From Candidatus Heimdallarchaeota archaeon (lineage in GTDB: Archaea; Asgardarchaeota; Heimdallarchaeia; JABLTI01), in contig JABCTZ010000026.1 of the NCBI GenBank assembly GCA_018238155.1, positions 1-64,000 of the forward strand: DNA of 64,000 nucleotides. The letters are read 5' to 3'. The first letter of the stretch is position 1, and each line of letters begins with the position of its first letter. The position numbers were made by a program, and so were the translations under genes. Positions 5,264 through 5,760 of this stretch are shown one piece after another. The notes beneath the pieces are model-generated. The model made no database searches. It saw only the letters and a list, made by a program, of their open reading frames with translations, and had not been told where the DNA came from.

Positions 5264-5619
5264 TTTTATTCCTCTTATTTTAAGTAGTTATTATGAATGA
5301 ATTATTATCTAAAAATATGTTGATTTCGACAAAACCTTACTCTTAATCTTTCAAAGAATTTTACTTAAAAACGATGTTATTAAGGCATTCAGTAAAATTA
5401 ATAATATTAAAAAGCAAAATTTTACTTTATTTACTATTTGCTTATTTAAAAAGCATTAATGATTAGAAGACACTATTATATTCTGTTTCAGAGGTTTGAA
5501 TATTAAAAGCAAACTTAAAAATAACTTGACTTCTTATCTTAAGAATGATGATTTTTTCTACTGTAAGAAACCAAAGTATTGCTCTGAATATGAAATGAAT
5601 AAATTAAAGCAAAAATACT

Positions 5620-5725
5620 TGGTGCCGAGAGGGAGAGTTGAACTCCCGGCTCAGGAACCACAATCCCGAATGTTGCCAGTATATTTTAGAAAGAATGCTT
5701 CTAACTAAACTTACACCATCTCAGC
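5620..5725 (-). tRNA. tRNA-His(GUG) with an ~30-nt intron in the D-loop; CCA encoded
   Basis: Acceptor stem GCTGAGA/TCTCGGC followed by ACCA, anticodon arm CGGGA-TTGTGGT-TCCTG, T-arm GGGAG-TTCAACT-CTCCC. Extra hairpin-forming segment at ~5679..5710. Confidence 0.9.
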
Positions 5726-5750
5726 TTTGGTGATTTTGAATTACTAATTG

Positions 5751-5760
5751 GGTATAAAAG
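5751..5760 (-). promoter_or_regulatory. Putative TATA box of tRNA-His
   Basis: CTTTTATACC on the minus strand about 26-35 nt upstream of the tRNA 5' end. Confidence 0.45.

Follow-up and report, generated by a model that had tools for sequence, protein, structure and literature searches.

The tRNA-His gene of the window

The window—the whole stretch of 64,000 nucleotides analysed here, from a contig of a Heimdallarchaeota genome—carries on its minus strand a tRNA-His(GUG) gene that lacks both bases of the canonical archaeal and bacterial tRNA-His identity, the encoded G−1 and C73, and whose D loop appears to be interrupted by an intron. The gene lies alone in an 819-nt gap flanked by two minus-strand open reading frames with unremarkable products. 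The following features are found at the locus:

5620..5725, minus strand: tRNA-His(GUG) gene, G1 through the encoded CCA, 106 nt with the intron counted (manual cloverleaf, orthologues, covariation)
5726, minus strand: position −1, an A and not a G, unable to pair with A73 (sequence reading)
5711..5725, minus strand: 5′ exon, positions 1–15, with the 5′ strand of the acceptor stem, U8, G9, the 5′ strand of the D stem, A14 and A15; its 3′ boundary (5711) is deduced from intron-less genes of the same genus and a fold resembling a bulge-helix-bulge
5679..5710, minus strand: putative D-loop intron, about 32 nt long and separating positions 15 and 16 (splice sites predicted)
5620..5678, minus strand: 3′ exon with the remainder of the D loop, the 3′ strand of the D stem, the anticodon arm, a 4-nt variable loop, the T arm, the 3′ strand of the acceptor stem, A73 (5623) and CCA (5622–5620)
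5661–5659, minus strand: anticodon GUG (His)
5753..5759, minus strand: TTTTATA, TATA-box-like, 28–34 nt upstream of G1 (read directly; found at the same place in the orthologue of the same-genus genome G009)
5611..5615, minus strand: run of five Ts, 5 nt past CCA (read directly)

The TTTTATA element probably represents the archaeal promoter of the gene, which would imply only a short 5′ leader, and the five-T run is a likely oligo-T terminator. The acceptor stem of 7 bp is formed by GCUGAGA (5725–5719) and UCUCGGC (5630–5624), includes a U3–G70 pair, and begins with G1–C72. The D stem consists of GUGU (5716–5713) and ACAU (5673–5670), with its loop interrupted by about 32 nt. A 5-bp stem and a 7-nt loop make up the anticodon arm (CGGGA/UUGUGGU/UCCUG), and the T arm reads GGGAG/UUCAACU/CUCCC. 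The attributes of a functional tRNA are present: a cloverleaf, GUG in a 7-nt loop, a T loop containing UUCAA, and an acceptor stem of 7 bp. The initial annotation of this DNA had read A73 and an A at position −1, and this reading is correct, as nucleotides 5623 and 5726 are both A.

ARAGORN, run with and without its intron mode, calls no tRNA at 5620..5725, and Rfam reports nothing at the gene at its gathering score; below that score, the Rfam tRNA model aligns with the 3′ two-thirds alone (21.2 bits, E 0.075). The silence of both tools is attributable to the D-loop insert of about 32 nt, which goes unmentioned in the initial annotation: where tested, ARAGORN calls the intron-less orthologues of the same genus tRNA-His(gtg). 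The notion that no tool call means no gene was therefore rejected; standard tRNA finders simply overlook this tRNA-His owing to its D-loop intron. The precursor folds with −37.5 kcal/mol (z = −3.5), a stability reached by none of 200 shuffled sequences, and a covariance model of the spliced tRNA (R1), built partly from this same gene, scores it at 83.6 bits. Across 27 A73-type genes, 99.1% of the stem cells are paired and compensatory changes occur at 19 of 21 pairs, whereas shuffled and slid controls score far below this alignment. Because stem pairing is maintained by compensatory changes, the tRNA-His is under selection and is not a relic, and the feature at 5620..5725 is confirmed, beyond chance, as a real tRNA-His gene. 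Weak Rfam matches to isrQ and snoRNA families around it were dismissed as chance.

The D-loop intron

Two genomes of the genus (G001 and G009) share the gene together with its D-loop intron. Five other genomes of the genus encode an intron-less tRNA-His with the D loops AAUGGUA or AACGGUA; splicing of the window gene between positions 15 and 16 yields AAUGGCA, equal in length to these intron-less loops. Three more distant members of the family harbor an anticodon-loop intron and not a D-loop intron. A relaxed bulge-helix-bulge can be drawn for the window gene, composed of a central helix GUGU/AUAU, the bulges AAG and ACU, and an inner helix UUUAG/CUAAA. A strict bulge-helix-bulge is absent from the minimum-energy fold of the precursor, and the relaxed form costs 4 kcal/mol more; for this reason, the splice sites are given as inferred only. 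Covariation is seen in the inner helix of G001 (UUCAG/CUGAA), and in G009 a G–U pair of the central helix is changed to G–C. Hidden D-loop introns of Asgard tRNA genes are the subject of a 2026 preprint (10.64898/2026.10.13.758758), in which tRNA-His is not discussed. When applied to the whole genome of the window in intron mode, ARAGORN calls only 43 tRNA genes, with gaps that include His, Asn, Cys, Trp, Lys(UUU), Thr(UGU), Val(CAC), and others. This genome probably contains further tRNA genes concealed by introns.

A single credible tRNA-His gene in the assembly

The assembly comprises 4.08 Mb in 46 contigs (32.8% G+C) and is 90.7% complete with 5.9% contamination. In a pairing-aware scan of the genome for a GUG anticodon arm followed by a T arm, the window gene is the only credible match. 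A second tRNA-His was looked for genome-wide; neither short-word BLAST across the genome nor a search near hisS on contig C13 revealed a second tRNA-His. With model R1, an A73 orthologue is detected in 10 of the 11 other genomes of the family and a canonical gene in none; in the eleventh, G004, the model detects no tRNA-His. The same type of search in the closed genome G016, which belongs to family f2, returns one tRNA-His, of the A73 type.

These results bear on the idea that the window gene is a decaying or accessory copy, the true canonical G−1:C73 tRNA-His being hidden in the unassembled part of the genome. Completeness and contamination of the assembly would allow for it, and unusual introns make tRNA genes easy to miss, as illustrated by the silence of ARAGORN on several other anticodons. 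The picture among the family relatives and in closed G016 speaks against it, as does the gene itself, with a cloverleaf maintained via compensatory changes and TATA-like and oligo-T signals on its flanks. We regard a hidden canonical copy as extremely improbable.

G009 holds, besides its orthologue, a diverged tRNA-His copy (L012, G009:C94:20300-20402, minus strand) that also has this D-loop intron. It bears G at −1, A73, and two mismatches in the acceptor stem, and is situated 3.1 kb upstream of a hisS of equal orientation. This copy could be a pseudogene, derive from a co-binned strain, or constitute the remnant of a tRNA-hisS unit.

Positions −1 and 73 across Asgard genomes

Judged by the relatives of its HisRS, the genome belongs among Heimdallarchaeota MAGs. 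tRNA-His was surveyed in the 83 genomes of the class and in 151 genomes sampled from the phylum, and three states can be distinguished. All genomes surveyed are Asgard, and C73 as the archaeal norm is taken from the literature (PMC3245924, PMC9976931). The first state is that of the window gene. It is represented by 31 distinct genes, all of which carry A73, while position −1 is A in 15, T in 13, C in 2, and G in 1, a composition no different from that of positions −2 to −6; even inside the genus the −1 base varies (A, U, C). CCA is encoded in 27 of the 31 genes, and the first pair is G1–C72 in 26 of 26 distinct A73-type sequences. This state characterizes families f1 (to which the window belongs), f2, f4, and f6 of the class and, in addition, family f17 and one genome of family f25. 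Ca. Heimdallarchaeum aukensis and endolithica, whose genomes are closed (G016 and G026; family f2), encode U at −1, A73, and CCA. The second state, an encoded G−1:C73, is found in f3 and f7 of the same class and in f9, f10, f11, f14, f16, and f18; overall, G−1 is encoded in 36 of 38 C73 genes, which come from Asgard families other than those with A73. The third state, C73 without an encoded G−1, is confined to two genomes, G090 and G099.

A73 without a conserved −1 nucleotide is thus a trait of whole lineages, namely four Heimdallarchaeia families and two other Asgard families. Tabulating the two positions across Asgard genomes, as the initial annotation had suggested, separates A73 families with an unconstrained −1 from C73 families that mostly encode G−1. 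A tRNA-like gene of unusual form, 69 nt long and with the anticodon GUG and U73, was noted in family f14 (L114, G194:C157:12332-12400), 400 nt from another tRNA-like match, and was left out of the tRNA-His tallies.

Search for a G−1-adding enzyme and the 5′ end of the tRNA

The initial annotation had offered two ways in which a cell could cope with such a tRNA-His, non-templated addition of G−1 by Thg1 or a histidyl-tRNA synthetase (HisRS) that does not depend on G−1. The first of these is unsupported. Thg1 (PF04446) was found neither in the window's own genome nor in any of the 83 genomes of the class, two closed genomes included; Thg1C (PF14413) was found in none of 12 genomes of the order; and tblastn with four Asgard Thg1-like proteins against the own genome gave nothing better than E 0.3. 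The PF04446 search is positive in 11 of the 151 Asgard genomes, none of them from an A73 family. Since it recovers Thg1-like genes in these 11 genomes, the search works in the phylum, and Methanosarcina acetivorans served as a further positive control. Among the 11 are G090 and G099, the two genomes with C73 and no encoded G−1. In both, tRNA-His (L097 in G090, L093 in G099) has U at −1 and a Thg1-like protein is encoded; the expected pairing of C73 lacking an encoded G−1 with a Thg1-like enzyme thereby holds, which fits templated G−1 addition.

G−1 might still be added post-transcriptionally opposite A73, be it by a divergent Thg1 or by an unrelated enzyme, with HisRS staying G−1 dependent. 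A73 in combination with G1–C72 is the exact eukaryotic substrate, the genome is only 90.7% complete, and a missing homologue leaves room for an analogue. Against this stand the empty class, closed genomes included, next to 11 positive genomes elsewhere in Asgard, the negative lineage-specific tblastn, the requirement of archaeal-type Thg1 for a C73 template (PMC3245924), and a partner HisRS in which the positions that hold G−1 are lost or changed (see below). Addition of G−1 by such an enzyme is, in our estimation, unlikely.

The genome encodes an archaeal RNase P RNA (125.5 bits). Because A−1 cannot extend the acceptor stem opposite A73, ordinary RNase P cleavage at +1 is expected. As another possibility, the encoded −1 nucleotide would be retained on the mature tRNA, through shifted RNase P cleavage or a transcription start at −1, and would put a 5′ phosphate at the position where HisRS needs it. 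U at −1 is able to pair with A73 in 13 of the 31 genes, the TATA-like box at 28–34 nt upstream of G1 would allow for a very short leader, and the HisRS of A. pernix tolerates A−1 and C−1 (identity review PMC9976931). However, a −1 position that resembles −2 to −6 in composition and varies within a genus shows no sign of such a role, the A−1 of the window leaves the acceptor stem at its ordinary length, and the RNA of the processing enzyme is present. Retention of the −1 base hence also appears improbable.

The partner histidyl-tRNA synthetase

The own genome encodes one HisRS, a 501-aa open reading frame with a GTG start on contig C13 (protein P0001). It scores 306 bits against TIGR00442, the hisS equivalog, for which the cut-off is 287, and its structural model (pLDDT 85.6) adopts an ordinary HisRS fold, with Thermoplasma HisRS as the best fold match (TM 0.87). 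After Thermoplasma, the closest solved relative of P0001 is trypanosomatid HisRS, both by sequence (195 bits) and by fold. Enzymes of the P0001 type measure approximately 500 aa, share 36–46% identity over their full length, and score 340–470 bits. Every genome sampled from f1, f2, f6, and f17 has one, as do five of six genomes of f4. The C73 families possess other HisRS types of 435–485 aa that score below 180 bits against P0001. In a tree of 168 HisRS sequences (FastTree), the P0001 type forms a clade of 12 with 100% support, and a branch of 100% support divides this clade from the group to which most other Asgard HisRS belong. A73 and a P0001-type HisRS therefore co-occur in five of the six A73 families.

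The positions contacting G−1 were taken from the T. thermophilus HisRS-tRNA complex (PMC4357726). In the P0001 clade, the Gly-Gly pocket reads SG in the own genome and KE, DD, EE, FG, EN, or SE in its relatives; the equivalent of Arg115 is always Thr, and that of Arg7 is unconserved. Arg120 and Glu114, which serve as contacts to C74 and A76, are conserved. The helical insertion domain, the clamp on the acceptor end, is larger by about 55 aa in this clade. As single-residue signatures of G−1 independence, both the Gly-Gly pocket and Arg115 were considered and set aside as not diagnostic on their own. The SG pocket also occurs in f7, the tRNA-His of which keeps G−1:C73; SG, AG, GE, EG, and GQ are all found in Asgard HisRS paired with G−1:C73; and the T. 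brucei enzyme has Gly-Gly, so no single residue can be diagnostic. The last example, a G−1-independent HisRS that keeps Gly-Gly, renders sequence a weak predictor of G−1 independence altogether. The second proposal of the initial annotation, a G−1-independent HisRS, is supported by covariation, in five of six families, with a HisRS clade in which the G−1-contact positions are changed.

The covariation between HisRS and tRNA is strong, not absolute, the exception being G198, a genome of family f25 labelled Lokiarchaeota. This genome (L105, L126) combines U−1, A73, and CCA with an f3-like HisRS and no Thg1, and perhaps came to A73 independently, by another route. In genomes of family f17, the A73 tRNA-His is located about 40–90 nt upstream of a P0001-type hisS on the same strand, at L127 (G159:C10:7677-9286) and at G112:C15:1417-3024. 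The f17 HisRS is sister to the enzyme of the own genome in the HisRS tree, and taxonomy puts f17 in another class.

A proposed pathway

We consider it likely, from the covariation and the altered contact positions, that the window gene encodes the cell's single working tRNA-His, which would start at G1, bear A73, and be charged by a co-evolved, G−1-independent HisRS. First, the D-loop intron would be removed from the precursor. RNase P would cut at +1 to yield a mature tRNA-His that begins at G1, has no −1 nucleotide, and retains A73. The P0001 HisRS would then charge this G1-start tRNA without requiring G−1. Candidates for the signal that replaces G−1 are A73, the anticodon, and acceptor-stem contacts established by the enlarged insertion domain. 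Three parts of this pathway are what we infer: the mature 5′ end, the G−1 independence of the enzyme, and the substitute for the G−1 identity signal. Taken at the level of sequence, the data point to a rewired recognition rule and not to the eukaryotic Thg1 route.

Significance

The G−1 of tRNA-His is among the most nearly universal identity marks of tRNAs. To our knowledge, exceptions have been described only in a few protists and in one clade of Alphaproteobacteria. Among the Heimdall-group Asgard archaea, entire families, with published closed genomes among them, carry A73 with no encoded G−1, and no Thg1 was found in them; they would constitute a third, archaeal case of tRNA-His identity rewiring. 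The literature searched contains no description of an A73 or G−1-less tRNA-His in Asgard or other archaea, and reviews assign C73 to archaeal tRNA-His and place the origin of A73 in early eukaryotes (PMC3245924, PMC9976931). The order of events at the origin of eukaryotic tRNA-His—the change from C73 to A73, the loss of the encoded G−1, and the recruitment of Thg1—becomes testable. Based on the present-day occurrence of A73 without an encoded G−1 in several Heimdallarchaeia families and one Loki-labelled genome, eukaryotes might have inherited A73 from an Asgard ancestor already devoid of G−1:C73, with non-templated Thg1 addition layered on later. We regard this scenario as doubtful. In a related and likewise doubtful reading, tRNA-His and HisRS may travel between Asgard lineages as an orthogonal two-gene module, a view suggested by the tRNA-hisS adjacency in f17 and by the sister relationship of its enzyme to that of the own genome despite their different classes. 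The pair is a natural candidate for an orthogonal tRNA/synthetase pair.

Comparison with known systems

The window gene resembles canonical archaeal and bacterial tRNA-His in its anticodon, cloverleaf, and 4-nt variable loop and differs from them in having neither G−1 nor C73. In the eukaryotic cytosol, tRNA-His bears A73, Thg1 adds G−1 without a template, and HisRS depends on this G−1. The acceptor end of the window gene is like that of eukaryotes, with G1–C72, A73, and no G at −1. In contrast to eukaryotes, no Thg1 was found, CCA is encoded, and the HisRS is of another type than in eukaryotes: the human enzyme scores 105 bits against P0001 and 218 bits against the HisRS of family f3, the type closest to it. 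The term eukaryote-like, by which the initial annotation had described the identity of this tRNA, is consequently apt for the tRNA (A73, no G−1) and inapt as far as HisRS and Thg1 are concerned. Family f3 belongs to the window's class and has a canonical G−1:C73 tRNA-His. For its HisRS (L135:575-1891, genome G017), human cytoplasmic HisRS nearly equals the top match, Elizabethkingia HisRS, and beats any archaeal structure. Motif 2 of the f3 enzyme reads FRDGPxKKGRYREFxQCDAD, and the HisRS of Heimdallarchaeota B3_Heim falls into its 90%-identity cluster.

Alphaproteobacteria of the Caulobacter crescentus type charge a G−1-less tRNA-His with a divergent HisRS (PMC3064791, PMC3245924, PMC4357726). 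The Asgard system shares with them A73, the lack of an encoded G−1, a search for Thg1 that found none, and a lineage-specific HisRS that covaries with the tRNA. In place of the Gly-Gly pocket, Caulobacter has two Asp; the HisRS of Ca. Heimdallarchaeum endolithica literally reads DD there, and that of the own genome SG. Despite these similarities, several differences exist. The first pair is G1–C72 in the Asgard tRNA and a G1–U72 wobble in Caulobacter. The Gln of motif 2 is kept in Asgard HisRS, whereas Caulobacter has Gly118. P0001 is only 21–25% identical to HisRS of the Pelagibacter group and falls into a clade of its own with 100% support, separate from the alphaproteobacterial one. Finally, the host is an archaeon, and only the Asgard clade has the enlarged insertion domain.

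The cytosolic HisRS of T. brucei has been shown biochemically to be G−1 independent, and the same applies to Acanthamoeba castellanii (Rao and Jackman 2015, PMC4338351); in that work the protist enzymes were also tried for rescue of yeast lacking thg1. As in these protists, the Asgard tRNA-His combines A73 with a Watson-Crick G1–C72 pair and no G−1, and no Thg1 was found in the genome. The synthetases differ in that the trypanosomatid enzyme keeps Gly-Gly and has an insertion domain of normal length, and in the motif 2 loop, which reads RYEAITRGRRRE in trypanosomatid and RDETLQRGRVKE in Asgard HisRS. While the T. brucei system has been assayed biochemically, G−1 independence of the Asgard enzyme is a prediction. 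Judged by these comparisons, the Asgard pair most likely works like the Caulobacter and trypanosome/Acanthamoeba systems and is a member of neither family.
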